Virus record (IMG/VR): IMGVR_UViG_2744054964_000002
Coordinates: 1 to 43,041 of that record
Origin: a virus
Taxonomy: Duplodnaviria; Heunggongvirae; Uroviricota; Caudoviricetes
DNA: 43,041 nt
Strand: one strand, 5' to 3'
Part shown: positions 17,143-23,427 of the stretch, in pieces
How the letters are laid out: each line of letters begins with the position of its first letter
How positions within the stretch are numbered: the first letter of the stretch is position 1
Notes under the pieces: generated by a model
Databases searched by the model: none
What the model was told of the DNA's origin: nothing
What the model saw: only the letters and a program-made list of their open reading frames with translations
Made by a program: the position numbers and the translations under genes

Positions 17143-17832
17143 ATGAACAGTCAGCAACTGGAATACGTACGTCAGCAGCTCATTGTGGCGACCGCAGACC
17201 TCAGCGGGGCGACGAAAGGGCAGCTGGTAGCTTTCGCCGAAAACGCGCAGTTCACCGCGACGGCGCGCAGCCGGGGCAGGAAGAAAATCACCGACCCGGT
17301 CACTGGTCGGAAAGTTAACCCTGACGGCCCGGCGATGAGCGGCAGCCAGTCCCGCGCAAAGGGATCATCTATCGCGCTGGTGGGGCCGGTTGAGTTTGTG
17401 ACCGCATCGTGGCGCCGCGCGGTGCTGTCGCTTGAAGACCACCAGAAAGCATGGCTTCTGTGGAACTACAGCGAGAATATCCGCTTCGAGTACCAGGTGG
17501 CGATAACTCAGTGGGCATGGGCAGAGTTCAGGGAACAGCTCGGCGCGAAGAAAGTGGCGGGCAAGACGATGGAGCGCCTGAAGAAGCTTGTCTGGCTCGC
17601 GGCTCAGGACGTGAAAGCAGAGCTGGCAGGGCGTGAGATGTACGAATATCAGGCGCTGGCGTCGCTGGTTGGCGTAACGCCAAAAAACTGGTCAGAGACC
17701 TTTACTGACCGCTGGGTTGAGATGCGCAGCATCTTCCTGCGACTGGATAGCGGGGCTTTATTGCAGGTTACGCGATCACGTTCACAACAAAAGGCGACAA
17801 ATTTAGACTCAAGTCTTGCAAAACTGGATTGA
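17143..17832 (+). CDS. Putative late-gene antiterminator (Q-like)
   Basis: 229-aa ORF located between rusA and the late promoter/terminator, as Q is in lambdoid phages; assignment by position and general resemblance, not a confident family match. Confidence 0.5.
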   Translation: MNSQQLEYVRQQLIVATADLSGATKGQLVAFAENAQFTATARSRGRKKITDPVTGRKVNPDGPAMSGSQSRAKGSSIALVGPVEFVTASWRRAVLSLEDHQKAWLLWNYSENIRFEYQVAITQWAWAEFREQLGAKKVAGKTMERLKKLVWLAAQDVKAELAGREMYEYQALASLVGVTPKNWSETFTDRWVEMRSIFLRLDSGALLQVTRSRSQQKATNLDSSLAKLD

Positions 17833-17844
17833 AACGCATATATT
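17816..17844 (+). promoter_or_regulatory. Candidate late promoter pR' (with expected qut region just downstream)
   Basis: -35 TTGCAA (17816-17821), 17-nt spacer, -10 TATATT (17839-17844); overlaps the 3' end of the Q-like gene. Confidence 0.5.
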
Positions 17845-17897
17845 TCATGTAAATCTGATATCGTCGCCATAGCTTCGTAGGTCGACAAAGAATTAAG

Positions 17898-17922
17898 AAC
17901 CCGCCATCGAGCGGGTTTTTTG
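17898..17922 (+). terminator. Rho-independent terminator (tR'-like)
   Basis: CCCGC-CATCGA-GCGGG stem-loop followed by TTTTTTG, about 50-70 nt downstream of the candidate pR' start. Confidence 0.65.
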
Positions 17923-18190
17923 TCGAAACTTTGTTTTTATATTTGGATTGTTACGTGCATCAAAAAAGATGATGAATAATCCAAAAAAGCCGTTTTTATG
18001 AGCTTTTAATCCCTTTTTTACTTGTCAAATCTGTAATTGACTCGCTATAGTCTGTTTAGTTCTTTATCAAAAAGACTCTTTTAAAGCCTCGTTTTGAGGC
18101 TTTTCGTGTATTTAAAGACCGTAAATCACTACATCTTGTGTTTGTTGTTTTGTTTTTGAGCTAGATGTAGCTATAACGAGGGACAAAATC

Positions 18191-18391
18191 ATGGGCGCTG
18201 CAGAATTTTACGAAAAAGTAGGTATTAAATCAGAGGAACTCCATAAAGGTGAATCTGTACAACACTATGCTATGCGCGTTCTTGCTCAGCAAGACGACCA
18301 GGCTATACGTAGTGGTGTTCTATACTCCTACAGCACTGTAAGTTCAGTTGAAGCTGTAGAGCAACAATCTCATCAACTGTACTCATATTGA
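18191..18391 (+). CDS. Hypothetical small protein (66 aa); first gene of the Q-lysis junction cassette
   Basis: ATG after GAGGGA RBS; AT-rich leader with promoter-like TTGTCA-18nt-TATAGT (18022-18051) and an 8-bp hairpin (18083-18103); no recognised motif. Confidence 0.5.
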   Translation: MGAAEFYEKVGIKSEELHKGESVQHYAMRVLAQQDDQAIRSGVLYSYSTVSSVEAVEQQSHQLYSY

Positions 18392-18403
18392 TAAAAGAAG
18401 AAC

Positions 18404-19303
18404 ATGCCAAATTGGATAGACGTGTTGGGCGAGATGGGTACTATTGCTCAACGTACACCAGCGGATGAGGTTCGCCACAAGTACTTACGAGAGTTGTCGA
18501 AGCATACAGGCCGAAACGTAATTTCATATTACTCAGGCTTCCTCCAGAAGGGGGGGCCTGGGTTGCAGCATTTAATACAAATGTCAGATGACGATAAAAA
18601 TGGTCTTATGTCAGCCATTAACGGCTTAGACACGTCATTAGGGCTGGATATCTTGCTTCATACCCCAGGGGGAGATATTGCAGCATTGGAATCTATTGGT
18701 CATTATCTTCGTTCAAAATTTGGGACCAATATCCGGGCAATTGTTCCTATGATCTCAATGAGTTGTGGGACCATGTTGGCTTGCTGTGCCGAACAGATTG
18801 TATTGGGCAAACAGTCAAATTTGGGGCCAATTGATCCGCAGCTTGGTGGTTTATCATCTCATGCGATCATAGAAGAGTATGAGCGAGCTAAGAAAGAGAT
18901 TTCTGAAAATGCTGCAGCGATCCAATGGTGGCAATTTACTCTTCAAAAGCTAAACCCGACTCTCATTGGTGAATGTGAAAAGGCTATTGTTTGGGCTAAT
19001 GAAATAGTACAAAAATGGCTGTGTACTGGTATGTTTGCAGGTCATGCTAACGCTCAAGATAAGGCTAAGCGAATTTGTGATGAGCTAAACAATCATCATA
19101 CAACCTATGCGCATGCTAGACATATTCATCTGGATAAAGCGCAAAGCATTGGTTTGAACATTATGGAGCTGGAGAGCGACCAAACTCTGCAGGATCTTGT
19201 GCTGACTATACATCATTGCTACATGCATTCATTTGGTACGAGTCCTGCTGCGAAAATTATTGAAAATCATAATGGCAGCACGATGATGTGGAATATTCGC
19301 TAA
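18404..19303 (+). CDS. ClpP/crotonase-fold serine peptidase-like protein (S49/SDH-like); second cassette gene
   Basis: 299-aa ORF; LLHTPGGDI resembles the xxSPGG oxyanion-hole motif of ClpP/SppA-fold peptidases; candidate nucleophile in MISMSCGTMLA; AT-rich by eye. Family call is motif-based only. Confidence 0.55.
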   Translation: MPNWIDVLGEMGTIAQRTPADEVRHKYLRELSKHTGRNVISYYSGFLQKGGPGLQHLIQMSDDDKNGLMSAINGLDTSLGLDILLHTPGGDIAALESIGHYLRSKFGTNIRAIVPMISMSCGTMLACCAEQIVLGKQSNLGPIDPQLGGLSSHAIIEEYERAKKEISENAAAIQWWQFTLQKLNPTLIGECEKAIVWANEIVQKWLCTGMFAGHANAQDKAKRICDELNNHHTTYAHARHIHLDKAQSIGLNIMELESDQTLQDLVLTIHHCYMHSFGTSPAAKIIENHNGSTMMWNIR

Positions 19304-19326
19304 ACGATATATCCTCGAATCACATA

Positions 19327-19352
19327 AGGCCACCTTCGGGTGGCCTTTTTTA
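19327..19352 (+). terminator. Rho-independent terminator closing the cassette
   Basis: AGGCCACC-TTCG-GGTGGCCT (8-bp stem) followed by TTTTTT. Confidence 0.7.
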
Positions 19353-19397
19353 TTCCCCTCATTCCTGAGAGGACTCACAGCAATAAGAGGGGGCTTA

Positions 19398-19793
19398 ATG
19401 TCCGATCCTGTTTCTGGCACTACGGTCGCGGCTGGTGGCCTGATGGGAGCCAGCGTATTTGGTCTTGCAACCGGTATTGATTATGGCGTGGTATTTGGCG
19501 CATTCGCTGGTGCAGTATTTTATGTAGCGACAGCGGCAAATATCACACGAGTACGATTGATTGCTTACTTCATGACGTCATTCATTGTTGGCGTTCTTGC
19601 CGCTGGACTGGTGGGTTCAAAGCTGTCACAGGCTACCGGGTATAGTGACAGACCATTAGACGCACTTGGTGCTGTTGTAGTGGCGGCGATGACAATCAAA
19701 GTGCTCACATTTTTCAACAGTCAGGATTTGGGAAGCCTGTTCAGTATTCTTTCGCGATTCCGTGGAGGAGGGGCCAGCAATGGTAACAAGTGA
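19398..19793 (+). CDS. Putative holin (multi-pass membrane protein)
   Basis: 131-aa ORF after AGAGGGGG RBS; three hydrophobic segments rich in Gly/Ala; immediately upstream of the endolysin. Confidence 0.65.
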   Translation: MSDPVSGTTVAAGGLMGASVFGLATGIDYGVVFGAFAGAVFYVATAANITRVRLIAYFMTSFIVGVLAAGLVGSKLSQATGYSDRPLDALGAVVVAAMTIKVLTFFNSQDLGSLFSILSRFRGGGASNGNK

Positions 19794-20061
19794 TCCGTCA
19801 GCGATGGTGAATGCAGGTATTTGTGCGGTCATCGTCCTTGTCCTGATGTTCTACCAGCGTGAAGGGGCAAGACATCGCCCCGCTATATCATTGCTGGCGT
19901 ACTTCGTTGTGCTGGTTTATGCCAGCGTTCCATTCCGATATCTGTTCGGCCTCTACCAGGAGTCACACTGGATGGTGGTCATCGTAAACCTTCTTATTTG
20001 CGCTGCCGTGTTATGGGCTCGTGGGAATGTGGCGCGTCTCGTTGATACGCTGAGGCATTAA
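19780..20061 (+). CDS. Second lysis-cassette membrane protein (holin/antiholin-like)
   Basis: 93-aa ORF from ATG 19780 (GGAGGAGGGG RBS), overlapping the holin stop; at least two hydrophobic helices; stop overlaps the endolysin ATG (TAATG). Confidence 0.5.
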   Translation: MVTSDPSAMVNAGICAVIVLVLMFYQREGARHRPAISLLAYFVVLVYASVPFRYLFGLYQESHWMVVIVNLLICAAVLWARGNVARLVDTLRH

Positions 20062-20678
20062 TGAACCAATCACAATTTCAACAGGCGGCTGGTGTAAGCG
20101 CCGGGTTAGCTACGCGCTGGTTTCCGCACATTGACGCGGCAATGAAAGAGTTCGGCATTGTTAAGCCTGAAGACCAGGCAATGTTTATTGCTCAGTCAGG
20201 ACATGAATCAGCGGGATTCTCTGCGCTGGTGGAGAGCTTCAACTACACCCCAGCCGCTCTGCTGACCACATTTGGACGCCGCATTACGAACTATCAGGCA
20301 TATATGCTTGGGCGTGACAAAGAAAAAGGGCACGTAGCCAATCAGCCAGCCATTGCAAATCTGGTGTACAGCAATCGCCTCGGTAACAAAGCATCAGGCG
20401 ATGGGTGGAAATATCGTGGCCGTGGGCTGATTCAGATTACCGGTCTTGATAATTACCGCCGCTGCGGAACGGGATTAAAACTGGATTTAGTCAGTAATCC
20501 TGAGTTGCTGGAAAAGGATATCAACGCGGCACGTTCAGCTGCATGGTTCTACGCCACCAGCGGATGCCTGAGCTATTCCGGCGATCTGGTTCGCATCACC
20601 CAGATCATCAATGGTGGACAGAACGGCATTAACGACCGTCGTGCACGCTACGCCAAAGCAAAAGCCGCACTGGTATGA
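20061..20678 (+). CDS. Endolysin, glycoside hydrolase family 19 (chitinase-like lysozyme)
   Basis: 205-aa ORF; FIAQSGHESAGF and YRGRGLIQITGLDNY are GH19 catalytic-region motifs; high overall similarity by eye to known Salmonella-phage GH19 endolysins. Confidence 0.9.
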   Translation: MNQSQFQQAAGVSAGLATRWFPHIDAAMKEFGIVKPEDQAMFIAQSGHESAGFSALVESFNYTPAALLTTFGRRITNYQAYMLGRDKEKGHVANQPAIANLVYSNRLGNKASGDGWKYRGRGLIQITGLDNYRRCGTGLKLDLVSNPELLEKDINAARSAAWFYATSGCLSYSGDLVRITQIINGGQNGINDRRARYAKAKAALV

Positions 20679-20961: not shown

Positions 20962-21127
20962 TACCGCCTGTGATTGGGTAAAGCCCATCTATCTTACTGA
21001 CCACGATATTGCCGTTATGGATAAGCAGACGAAGCGCGACATCCTAGTGCATAACAAAGCATGGAAGGTGAACTGTAATCCCAAAAAGGTAAAGACGAGC
21101 ACTCTAAAATTTGTGGACAAGCCATGA
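20876..21127 (+). CDS. o-spanin (Rz1-like lipoprotein), overlapping the i-spanin in another frame
   Basis: 83-aa ORF starting inside the Rz-like gene; signal/lipobox-like TMLIVSC followed by a Pro-containing mature region. Confidence 0.6.
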   Translation: MYSRVLTICLATMLIVSCATTGPAPVVVDTACDWVKPIYLTDHDIAVMDKQTKRDILVHNKAWKVNCNPKKVKTSTLKFVDKP

Positions 21128-21189
21128 AGTACCCGTTATCCTTTCTATAGGATTCCAAAGGAATACCATAGGAAACCAAAGGTAACATT

Positions 21190-21441
21190 ATGGCAAAAAC
21201 ATATTTCCCCATCGAAGACTCTGTAGAGTTAGTGACAGCATCTAAACCACACCCAAGTAACACGCATTACAAAGTTTCTCGTGGAACTGAAATCTGGGAT
21301 GGTGAAAATGTTGAGGTAATCAAAGTTCAGATGGTTTACAACGGCGAAGTGGCCGGAAGAAGAAGCCCTTCATATCCCGTTGGGACTGATGATTATCAAC
21401 GTGTCCATTTAGCTATAGAAAAAATCATCAGGTCAAGATAA
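21190..21441 (+). CDS. Hypothetical protein (83 aa)
   Basis: ORF preceded by two 15-bp direct repeats (21147-21182) and followed by a terminator. Confidence 0.5.
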   Translation: MAKTYFPIEDSVELVTASKPHPSNTHYKVSRGTEIWDGENVEVIKVQMVYNGEVAGRRSPSYPVGTDDYQRVHLAIEKIIRSR

Positions 21442-21448
21442 AAGCAAA

Positions 21449-21471
21449 AGGTCGCTTAGGCGGCCTTTTTT
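21449..21471 (+). terminator. Rho-independent terminator
   Basis: AGGTCGC-TTAG-GCGGCCT stem (one G-U pair) followed by TTTTTT. Confidence 0.5.
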
Positions 21472-21679
21472 CATCGATAATACATTCACTGGGTTATATC
21501 CAATCCCGTGGTTGAGAGGCATGCTGTATTGCTACTCGACTAACTGCATTACAGAAAGCATTCACTGAGTGCCTGCGATAATGCAAATTGACGGACTCGT
21601 CAGAAATCCTTTACAAAACATGATGTTGAATTAAATTGTTGCGTGGGTTAGCTTGAGGTTAGTTCACACAGGAGGTCAT

Positions 21680-21922
21680 ATGTCACAATCAGCGCTTGCT
21701 ACTGAATTAGAACTCACTGACGATGAGTTGGATTCCATACCTCTATCACCTGAAGACCTTGAGGAGAATACAGGGCATTCAGGCGATATGGTATATGAGT
21801 ACTATTTCTATGTTCCCGATACTACCCCTGAAGATATTCTTAGCAAGAAAGGATGGGAAATAGGTGAGTGTGTTTACTTATCTATTAATGTTTTTGATGA
21901 CCCGGATTCGGAGCAAGAATAG
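21680..21922 (+). CDS. Small highly acidic protein (80 aa)
   Basis: ATG at 21680 after AGGAGG RBS; about 30 percent Asp/Glu (ELELTDDELDSIPLSPEDLEE...DDPDSEQE); own terminator downstream. Confidence 0.5.
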   Translation: MSQSALATELELTDDELDSIPLSPEDLEENTGHSGDMVYEYYFYVPDTTPEDILSKKGWEIGECVYLSINVFDDPDSEQE

Positions 21923-21938
21923 AACGATAAGCATAATG

Positions 21939-21961
21939 CACCGCCTCCGGGCGGTTTTTTT
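21939..21961 (+). terminator. Rho-independent terminator
   Basis: CCGCC-TCCG-GGCGG stem followed by TTTTTTT. Confidence 0.65.
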
Positions 21962-21983
21962 ATGTCAGTACACTGGAGCGTTT

Positions 21984-22622
21984 ATGGCAACACTCAAAGA
22001 CCTTTCTCAGCAATTAAAGAAGGTACAAAAGCAGGTGCCATATGCTACAGCACTAGCTATGACAAAAGTTGTTCGTCAAATAGAAACGGCACAGAAAACA
22101 GCGTTCGAACGACATCTGGAGAGCCCGACACCGTTTACCGTTAAATCAGTTGGTTCGGTGGCGGCAAGGAAGAACAACCTGACTGCAAAGGTTTTTGTCC
22201 GCGATACCGCGGCTGGTTATCTGGAACCATTCGAGTTAGGTGGAGAGCATAAGCTCAATAGCCAAGCGCTATTGAACCCCAAGAACGTCAAGCTAAACAA
22301 ATACGGCAACATGCCGCGTAATAAGCTCTCACAGCTTAAAGCAAAGGAAAATGTATTCGTAGGTGAGGTTGATGGCGTTAACGCTGTCTGGCAGCGTAAG
22401 AAGCCGATGAAAGCTAAGAAGCGACGGGCCAAACGTTCCGCTAACGGGACGCGAAGACCGAAACGCAAACAGCGTTCTCCAAAGCTTTTGATCCGGTTTG
22501 GTGATGCGCTACCTGTGACTCCAGTGCTGGGGTATATGGATAGGGCCCGTACCATGGCGAACGCACTGCTACCGTCTGCTTTAAATCAGGCGATAGCAGA
22601 AGCCATCAGGACGGCAAAATAA
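21984..22622 (+). CDS. Hypothetical protein with basic Lys/Arg-rich segment (212 aa)
   Basis: Internal ATG at 21984 (the upstream part of the track ORF contains the terminator); KKPMKAKKRRAKRSANGTRRPKRKQR basic tract; no confident family. Confidence 0.5.
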   Translation: MATLKDLSQQLKKVQKQVPYATALAMTKVVRQIETAQKTAFERHLESPTPFTVKSVGSVAARKNNLTAKVFVRDTAAGYLEPFELGGEHKLNSQALLNPKNVKLNKYGNMPRNKLSQLKAKENVFVGEVDGVNAVWQRKKPMKAKKRRAKRSANGTRRPKRKQRSPKLLIRFGDALPVTPVLGYMDRARTMANALLPSALNQAIAEAIRTAK

Positions 22623-22632
22623 AAGCAGTAAC

Positions 22633-23136
22633 TTATAAGTTAATTTCGCAAGCTTTTATGAAGCTGTTTACTGCAGTTGTCGATCCAGAAACATTGGCTG
22701 ACATGGAATGCTGGTTTCCGCCATCCTTTGTTTGCACACCAACTAACACTTTGGATTTCGCCCCCTGAAGCTGCTTAAGCACTGTTTTTAGTTGGTCCGC
22801 GTCATCCGATTGAATCTGGAGGCTCTGAACATTACGTCTTGAAAGGGTAGCATCGAGCTTCACTGCGGTATTCCCGTCGACCTTCATTATCAGGTCCATT
22901 GGTACCTCTGATAGTGATTCGGTGCTTTTATCCATTTCAACGTATGCCGCCGATAGCTTTTCTTTAGTGCAGTCAAACACAATGGCGCCATTGTCGGATG
23001 AAACCTCGCCAAGCATCATTGCTTTCTTACCACCAGAGAAAAGGTCATCTTCAGTATTAGTTACCCACTGGGCATGAGCAATTGGTGATGCCAGCACTGC
23101 GGCTACGAAAGTTATTTTGATTATATTGTTACCCAT
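22633..23136 (-). CDS. Secreted hypothetical protein (167 aa), opposite-strand moron between lysis genes and cos
   Basis: ATG at 23134-23136 after AAGGAG RBS; N-terminal signal peptide MGNNIIKITFVAAVLASPIAHA; only minus-strand gene in the late region, in the position bor occupies in lambda. Confidence 0.55.
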   Translation of the reverse strand: MGNNIIKITFVAAVLASPIAHAQWVTNTEDDLFSGGKKAMMLGEVSSDNGAIVFDCTKEKLSAAYVEMDKSTESLSEVPMDLIMKVDGNTAVKLDATLSRRNVQSLQIQSDDADQLKTVLKQLQGAKSKVLVGVQTKDGGNQHSMSANVSGSTTAVNSFIKACEINL

Positions 23137-23229
23137 TACATTCTCCTTGTATTGAATAGGAATAATCATAGTCGGAGCGAATGGTCGAAGCCAATAAAAA
23201 AATGGGTCCTTCCTGAGACTTTTGTAAGG

Positions 23230-23260
23230 TACGGGCATTGCGCGCCGCGGTGTTTTCCTA
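23230..23260. other. Candidate cosN-like region
   Basis: GC-rich GGGCATTGCGCGCCGCGGTGTTTTCCTAGCTA resembles, from memory, the lambda left cohesive end (GGGCGGCGACCTCGCGGGTTTTCGCTA); lies about 170 bp upstream of the small terminase gene. Confidence 0.3.
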
Positions 23261-23279
23261 GCTACAACTTTCAGATTTG

Positions 23280-23427
23280 TGTCCCATGTCCCACCTCTGG
23301 CGATCATTACGGACACCTCGCCAGCTCTGGCTATTCCAGTTTATTCCAGTGGGACATTCTGGTGGGACATGGCAAAAATGTCCCAGGCGAATGTCCCACC
23401 CCAGAAAATGTCCCAGGTGATGTCCCA
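23280..23427 (+). repeat. Array of eight TGTCCCA / TGGGACA heptamers (candidate cosB-type small-terminase binding sites)
   Basis: TGTCCCA at 23280, 23287, 23379, 23392, 23409, 23421; inverted TGGGACA at 23350, 23363; the last copy abuts the terminase small subunit start codon. Confidence 0.6.

Follow-up and report, generated by a model that had tools for sequence, protein, structure and literature searches.

What does a lambdoid prophage carry between its late antiterminator gene and its lysis genes, and what could that cargo be for? The question is raised by the 43,041-nt window analysed here, IMG/VR virus record IMGVR_UViG_2744054964_000002, positions 1 to 43,041, which is a lambdoid prophage of Escherichia coli: five complete E. 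coli chromosomes match its segment 17800-19450 at 100% identity, and two others at 99.9%. Between the gene of the antiterminator Q and the first holin gene lie two open reading frames (ORFs), of 66 amino acids (aa) at 18191-18391 and of 299 aa at 18404-19303, both on the plus strand, as are all features given below unless another strand is stated. The initial annotation, made from the letters alone, had placed them in a cargo cassette, or moron, of a small protein and a ClpP-fold serine-peptidase-like protein with promoter, leader hairpin and terminator of their own, and had considered a part in defence or in lysogenic conversion. We found that the two genes form a horizontally mobile unit, in which the small protein is a near-universal companion of an SDH-type protease, and we discuss why a role against phages appears, with modest confidence, to be the probable one.

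A mobile two-gene cassette in the late operon

The whole block from promoter to terminator (17977-19367) recurs in a prophage of E. coli Nissle 1917, with 80% identity and with different neighbours (megablast, query positions 178-1568 of the window segment 17800-19450), and these limits were taken as the extent of the mobile cassette. The Nissle 1917 copy occupies the slot from Q to the lysis genes, as in the window and in other prophages, while related cassettes sit in the slot from the lysis genes to the terminase genes of still other prophages. The cassette is found behind Q genes of both the 82 type and the lambda type, and an empty site is available as well: in E. coli KFu022 the 3' end of Q and the terminator tR' are followed, 190 nt later, by the holin gene, with no cassette between them. 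The survey of this junction in related prophages, where the cassette is variably present, together with the second slot and the Nissle 1917 block among other neighbours, bears out the cargo proposed by the initial annotation. It can be classed as a moron of two genes that moves horizontally and is carried in the late operon: it has a promoter and a terminator of its own, is atypical in composition, lies between genes that are conserved, and is present in some relatives and absent from others.

The borders of the insert are clear. Upstream stands Q (17143-17832; Pfam Phage_antiter_Q, 3e-87; PHROG 304), named 'bacteriophage antitermination protein Q' by the Prokaryotic Genome Annotation Pipeline (PGAP) in the identical E. 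coli locus. Downstream, the lysis block consists of the holin gene that closes the slot (19398-19793; Pfam Phage_holin_8, 2e-39), a further holin gene at 19762-20061 and a GH19 endolysin gene at 20061-20678. The G+C content is 34–45% over 17850-19350, against 52–62% upstream and about 50% downstream, as expected from the AT-rich insert that had been noticed between tR' and the holin gene.

As for its distribution, a relative could be detected in about 80 of 5426 complete E. coli genomes, always chromosomal and, in every copy examined, within a prophage; clinical isolates are among the carriers. Copies in temperate phages outside enterobacteria were found in a Mu-like Shewanella phage, in phages of Porphyromonas gingivalis and in the Gordonia phage BeeGee, the homologues in the oral Porphyromonas phages being 42% identical to the protease of the window. 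Other relatives are borne by plasmids, two of which measure about 43–44 kb, and proteins with about 50% identity to the E. coli prophage protease occur across many phyla; free-living environmental bacteria and an archaeon also have close members of the family.

In two related Klebsiella prophages (L169 and L171) several cargo genes follow one another from Q to terminase, for an N6_N4 DNA methyltransferase, for the SDH pair and for an NMT1_3 protein, and L169 also encodes a protein of the Acb2/Tad1-hairpin type, an anti-defence family, after its lysis genes. In the window, a second stretch of low G+C (39–43%) is present at 21000-23320, from the lysis genes to the terminase, that is, in the other cargo slot of lambdoid phages; its ORFs, at 21190-21441, 21653-21922, 21864-22622 and 22633-23316 (minus strand), matched no Pfam family.

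The small protein as second component of the protease

The pairing of the two genes was followed in loci that encode relatives of the protease, 80 of them taken from genomes of many phyla and another 80 from IMG/VR. Upstream sequence was sufficient in 151 loci, and in 140 of these a small ORF in the same direction (median 68 aa) abuts the start of the protease gene. The genome loci taken separately have an ORF of 45–110 aa abutting the protease in 66 of 76 cases (87%), compared with 58 of 318 (18%) for the control genes, which were the other genes of the same loci (Fisher p 1e-29). The partner is missing upstream in 11 loci, and in nine of these a protein of 54–72 aa with the same sequence pattern is encoded directly downstream. 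The group with swapped order (L021, L025, L032, L040, L057, L162, L153, L154, L015, L069 and L035) derives mainly from rumen and gut samples, with many Firmicutes, and has kept both the N-terminal pattern and an ISYS-type motif. We conclude that the gene order was swapped in one lineage while the pair was retained, and that the small protein is a near-universal, in this sense 'obligatory', second component of the protease; the peptidase with a small partner that had been suspected in the window is a linkage found far beyond it.

The distance between the two genes is short. In the window, the 66-aa gene ends 12 nt upstream of the protease gene, and the intergenic gaps across the loci range from −41 to +16 nt. 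These gaps, and the overlaps of stop and start codons, point to translational coupling of the two genes. In many distant loci the stop codon of the partner overlaps the ATG of the protease by 8 nt (xAT GCC TAA over ATG CCT AA). At 18389-18406 of the window the two ORFs share one reading frame, with nothing but TGA TAA and three codons between them.

A conserved third gene was looked for and not found: the 148 flanking proteins of the genome loci span 167 Pfam families. The only recurrent neighbours in these loci are subunits of Type I restriction-modification systems, HsdR and HsdS, with 3–4 proteins each. In some Fibrobacter loci the pair seemingly lies inside a restriction-modification operon and, in what are probably L048 and L076, a gene of about 1050–1080 aa follows the protease gene after 0–9 nt.

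An SDH-type ClpP-fold protease

The 299-aa product of the larger gene matches Pfam SDH_protease (PF01972) over residues 22-253, with 76.6 bits against a cut-off of 31.3 (E 2.2e-21), and PHROG 11747 (function unknown) at 9e-127; the identical E. coli protein is named 'SDH family Clp fold serine proteinase' by PGAP (NCBIfam NF047768). The serine peptidase of ClpP fold announced by the initial annotation is therefore well founded, and of the families proposed for checking it, SDH_sah, the old Pfam name of PF01972, was passed and the S49 and ClpP models were not: Pfam CLP_protease and Peptidase_S49 gave no match at E≤1, and TIGR00706 SppA_dom reached 11.3 bits against 155. Weak matches were obtained to head-maturation proteases of the same clan (PHROG 53, PHROG 26628 and NCBIfam Clp_rel_HeadMat). 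Since the score with the NCBIfam model NF047768 Clp_like_SDH, 91.3 bits, is far under its equivalog cut-off of 250, the protein represents a subfamily distinct from the Clp_like_SDH equivalog, whose traits are a length of about 300 aa, a helical C-terminal half rich in invariant histidines, and the small partner.

The AlphaFold2 model of the protease, built with 104 homologues, has a mean predicted local distance difference test score (pLDDT) of 91.4 and a predicted template modelling score (pTM) of 0.88, and adopts the ClpP fold with confidence. Foldseek matched it to ClpP chains in the Protein Data Bank, with a template modelling (TM) score of about 0.6 on the target, and, in BFVD, the best matches were the 'serine dehydrogenase proteinase' proteins of giant viruses, with a TM score of 0.64 on the query. 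These came from Marseillevirus, Mimivirus, Klosneuvirus and, in many copies, Hyperionvirus; the SDH protease family is thus also expanded in the giant viruses of eukaryotes.

Invariant in the 104 homologues are the motif H86-T-P-G-G90, S120, D144, H237, R239, H240, H270 and H271. The HTPGG motif (residues 86-90), already noticed in the window, is the oxyanion motif, of the xxPGG type, and in the alignment of family profiles Ser120 falls at the position that the nucleophilic serine has in ClpP and in 1510-N, an NfeD protease from archaea, so that the catalytic serine sought by structure and alignment has an invariant candidate. Candidate catalytic residues are Ser120, Asp144 and either His237 or His240. 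Asp144 appears to stand about where ClpP has its catalytic histidine, so the histidine would come from the C-terminal half, and this would fit the Ser-Asp-His order behind the name of the SDH family. Direct reading of the translations showed no signal peptide and no transmembrane segment in either protein of the cassette, and both look cytoplasmic.

A fast-evolving partner

The 66-aa ORF belongs to PHROG 25714 (function unknown). In pairs of close relatives with unsaturated dS, the ratio of non-synonymous to synonymous substitution rates (dN/dS) of the partner is 0.04–0.15, which denotes purifying selection; on this ground the ORF can be regarded as a real, selected gene. The protein is acidic. 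Its AlphaFold2 model, of low confidence, has two short N-terminal helices, at residues 3-9 and 23-41, and a tail (residues 48-66) that is mostly of low confidence; this tail is disordered and rich in Ser, Thr and Gln, contains GVLYSYST and has QLYSY as its last residues. Neither the Pfam scan nor the AlphaFold2 model gave sign of a DNA-binding domain in the partner.

The partner is difficult to follow by its sequence. A word-based search gave only four clusters of close relatives, and a full profile search of 1.84 billion representative proteins gave eight, all standalone and 66–73 aa long; among these representatives no fusion or added domain of the partner was seen, apart from one spurious low-complexity match. 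Profile iteration from the 66-aa protein joined 49 of the 110 distinct locus partners, including those of Nitrospinae, Smithella, Planctomycetes, Bdellovibrio and the archaeon Methanimicrococcus. The shared core consists of an N-terminal helix with the pattern phi-x-x-F/Y-x-x-phi-x-I, an 'FA-x-x-F/V' segment and a phi-x-Tyr-Ser-x-x-Ser/Thr motif; the strict phi-x-Tyr-Ser/Thr form is present in 55 of 120 partners, and the enterobacterial partners carry an extra tail that ends in LYSY. Across phyla, then, the protease keeps about 50% identity, whereas its partner has diverged almost beyond recognition.

Promoter, leader and terminator of the cassette

The cassette has a sigma-70-type promoter of its own, TTGTCA-18-TATAGT at 18022-18051, which is the best match to the consensus in the region (10/12). 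Promoter-like sites as such are not above chance here (6 found, 4.2 expected), and the case for the promoter, the hairpins and the terminator was made from their conservation in otherwise diverged cassettes and not from match counts. Cassettes with no more than about 80% identity keep both hexamers, and relatives of about 70% identity that occupy another slot still keep TATAGT. At the other end, an intrinsic terminator (19326-19353) consists of a stem at 19326-19347, with 9 bp and 6 G-C pairs, and a T run, and it was kept in related cassettes whose flanks diverge. In this way the promoter, the leader hairpin and the strong terminator that had been read from a single sequence were all recovered.

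Between the promoter and the first gene, the leader contains two hairpins. Hairpin 1, AAAGCCTC-GTTTT-GAGGCTTT (18083-18103), is followed by a U-rich run up to 18113; hairpin 2, CTACATCTTGT ... CTAGATGTAG (18129-18170), has a conserved stem and ends about 8 nt before the Shine-Dalgarno sequence GAGGGA (18178-18183). The layout of promoter, hairpin 1 with U run, hairpin 2 and Shine-Dalgarno sequence is kept, despite sequence change, in 22 distinct enterobacterial cassettes. Among these, 4 of the 7 pairs of hairpin 1 and 2 of the 8 pairs of hairpin 2 show compensatory changes, the loop of the latter being variable (20–27 nt), and RNAalifold predicted both helices, with 6 of 15 pairs compensatory. 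Over both helices 97.6% of the cells are paired, compared with 86.2% in shuffles (0/500 reach the observed value), a control whose significance is overstated by the mutual relatedness of the cassettes; the covariation score of the structure is 0.398 against 0.184. When the partner strand was slid, only 28–57% of the cells were paired, and this control, together with the stem swaps (GCCUC/GAGGC to CCUCC/GGAGG), is the stronger evidence for the leader helices. Hairpin 2 is absent from the minimum-energy fold of the single sequence of the window, with an overall z-score of only −1.5, and the leader has no match in Rfam.

Hairpin 1 resembles an intrinsic terminator or attenuator, about 30–50 nt 3' of the expected start of transcription, and attenuation at this site may hold expression low in the lysogen. 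In the leader of the window (18052-18190), the stem sequence ACAUNUNGU / ACNANAUGU of hairpin 2 is conserved around the variable loop, which suggests recognition of this hairpin by some factor. We considered whether the promoter and the leader hairpin could be pR' and tR' of the phage itself and rejected it, since the same leader accompanies the cassette into the slot from lysis genes to terminase and since the isrJ-like element further upstream would be the real short late RNA.

This element matches Rfam isrJ in full length at 17848-17920 (58.7 bits, gathering score 37, E 8.5e-10), and the RNA would span 17848-17922, ending in a tR'-like hairpin at 17898-17922; the late terminator of the initial annotation is the 3' end of this match. 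A candidate pR', TTGCAA-17-TATATT, was found by promoter scan at 17816-17844. Because the match sits directly 3' of Q and behind this promoter-like site, the simplest reading is that it looks like the short RNA from pR' to tR'. The segment up to about 17925 is kept together with Q in phages and prophages that have no cassette, and divergence begins beyond it. IsrJ is known from Salmonella as an island-encoded small RNA that binds Hfq. If our reading is true, the isrJ family is the pR'-tR' transcript of lambdoid phages.

Relation to known systems

The protease shares with ClpP (S14), SppA (S49) and Pyrococcus 1510-N the fold, the aligned serine nucleophile and the xxPGG oxyanion motif; it differs from the first two in that it passes the models of neither family and has no ATPase partner nearby. 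The NfeD-type 1510-N of Pyrococcus has as its substrate a stomatin whose gene belongs to the same operon. The cassette resembles the 1510-N system in that a protease is encoded beside a dedicated partner, and differs in having no membrane anchor and no stomatin. With the morons of lambdoid phages, such as stx from Q to lysis and bor of lambda from lysis to terminase, the cassette has in common that it is AT-rich, brings a promoter and a terminator, lies between conserved late genes and is variably present among related phages; what sets it apart is the cargo, a cytoplasmic protease pair instead of a toxin or surface protein, and the conserved two-hairpin leader. A further comparison concerns what may be expected and not what was observed. 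Lit of e14 is a zinc metalloprotease that cleaves EF-Tu when triggered by the Gol peptide of T4; although of an unrelated protease class, it would resemble the cassette as a prophage protease that is silent until a phage product triggers it.

The nearest counterpart in organisation is the DefenseFinder system FS_HP_SDH_sah, a hypothetical protein plus SDH_sah, which Fillol-Salom et al. (Cell 2022) are reported to have validated among the immune systems of phage-inducible chromosomal islands. The cassette likewise has a two-gene layout, with a hypothetical protein and an SDH_sah/SDH_protease protein, on a phage-linked mobile element; the 66-aa gene lies 12 nt upstream of the protease here, and the pairing holds in 87–93% of the loci. 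The SDH_sah domain was recognised with the Pfam PF01972 model, not with the profile of DefenseFinder. The window copy differs in its location on a lambdoid prophage and not on a satellite. The Tai tail-assembly system, from the same laboratory, was considered as a relative and discarded, as no protease is involved in it.

Possible function of the cassette

Since the cassette is a compact two-gene unit, with a conserved enzyme and a hypervariable partner, patchy transfer, prophage slots and restriction neighbours, we favour, with somewhat better than even confidence, its being an anti-phage module with the layout of FS_HP_SDH_sah, an assignment made by architecture. Several observations weigh against it. 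No model of PADLOC-DB v2 matches either protein, and the protease does not pass the equivalog cut-off of Clp_like_SDH, as reported above. Copies on satellites or phage-inducible chromosomal islands were not found among the IMG/VR and Enterobacteriaceae loci, where only prophage contexts were seen, and the constant co-orientation with late transcription suits a function in the lytic cycle of the phage equally well. In the literature, no paper was found that places this protease family in defence, the sole trace being a DefenseFinder gene name on phage-borne genes, and the E. coli paper on defence systems obtained by functional selection contains no system of the ClpP type.

How such an anti-phage module could work may be sketched as follows. 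The two proteins are most likely co-translated and most likely form a complex. In the lysogen, the cassette promoter would give a low expression, capped by the terminator-like leader hairpin, and the disordered, Tyr-Ser-rich tail of the partner would occupy or gate the substrate groove of the protease and so hold the enzyme in check. When another phage infects, one of its products would displace or consume the partner, and the released protease would cut phage proteins or essential host proteins, so that the infection is aborted. Upon induction of the resident prophage, Q-modified RNA polymerase would pass tR', the leader hairpin and the cassette terminator, and the late genes would be expressed. 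The gating by the tail, suggested by a disordered, motif-bearing tail and by the tight coupling of the genes, is a purely hypothetical mechanism; the defence function itself, the inhibition by the partner and the attenuation in the leader are likewise what we infer. A more daring version, which we regard as improbable, joins the two peculiarities of the cassette: the hypervariable partner would be the phage sensor, its Tyr-Ser tail plugging the ClpP-fold SDH protease as a bait or pseudosubstrate until a phage factor removes it, and the two-hairpin leader would make expression dependent on antitermination, so that late transcription by a resident or an invading lambdoid phage would turn the module on.

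If the pair did not protect the lysogen, it could serve the phage itself in lytic growth, as a counter-defence or host-takeover protease or in the exclusion of co-infecting phages at assembly; a protease made from the late transcript might, for example, degrade immune or housekeeping proteins of the host. The late operon contains the cassette, always co-oriented, in over 30 distinct prophage loci, from Q to lysis or from lysis to terminase; transcription by Q-modified polymerase would run on past the leader and terminator of the cassette, and the weak matches to head-maturation proteases (PHROG 53, PHROG 26628, Clp_rel_HeadMat) would agree with such a role. A conserved promoter and terminator of its own are, however, the distinguishing mark of genes that the lysogen expresses, the pair occurs also in chromosomal contexts without phage genes, beside restriction-modification genes, and in an archaeon, and most related phages do without the cassette, which is accordingly not needed for growth. 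We therefore consider the lytic role, and equally its example of a late protease directed at host proteins, rather unlikely. The abutting or overlapping of a small gene with that of a larger enzyme, the contrast between a fast-evolving small component and a conserved enzyme, and the patchy, mobile distribution would also be expected from an addiction module of the toxin-antitoxin kind, with the protease as toxin and the small protein as labile antitoxin, stabilising the prophage or island with no direct action on phages. This is an unlikely explanation, given that the gene order is permuted in one lineage and that autoregulation in the manner of type II systems is not supported by an acidic partner in which no DNA-binding domain was found; moreover, it overlaps with the anti-phage reading, many such modules proving to be abortive-infection systems.

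The tail of the partner invites yet another thought, namely that the small protein is a precursor peptide, processed by the protease into a signalling or antimicrobial peptide. Its disordered Ser/Thr-rich end, the conserved phi-x-Tyr-Ser motif, the C-terminal LYSY of the enterobacterial proteins and the dedicated protease encoded next to it speak for this, but the translations show signal peptides and transmembrane segments in neither of the two proteins, no conserved modifying enzyme or exporter is found nearby, and the strict phi-x-Tyr-Ser/Thr motif is limited to just 55 of 120 partners, which makes it very unlikely in our opinion. Least credible of all is a lysogenic-conversion or virulence factor, one of the possibilities raised by the initial annotation. 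The slot is, as is generally known, used by stx and other conversion genes of lambdoid phages, and clinical E. coli isolates are among the carriers; yet close relatives occur in free-living environmental bacteria and an archaeon, the proteins look cytoplasmic, and the probiotic Nissle 1917 carries the cassette, so that this part of the initial annotation hardly stands.

Implications

The two-gene layout already has a name in a defence catalogue. To this the analysis adds a partner that is near-universal, permutable and evolves fast, a list of residues that do not vary, an empty site, a second slot and a conserved structured leader. From these, the anti-phage reading gains three handles: a fast-evolving second component that is present from enterobacterial prophages to archaea, even where the gene order is swapped; a short list of invariant residues to mutate; and a conserved structured leader in the enterobacterial copies, which probably limits expression. 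The cassette is thus a clean, small object in which the mechanism of an SDH-protease system can be studied. If the sensor and antitermination reading were true, it would be a defence that senses the Q-type regulation of the phage by means of a new cis-regulatory RNA element. In any case, its occurrence in Nissle 1917 and in clinical E. coli may affect which therapeutic or Stx-type phages grow in these strains.

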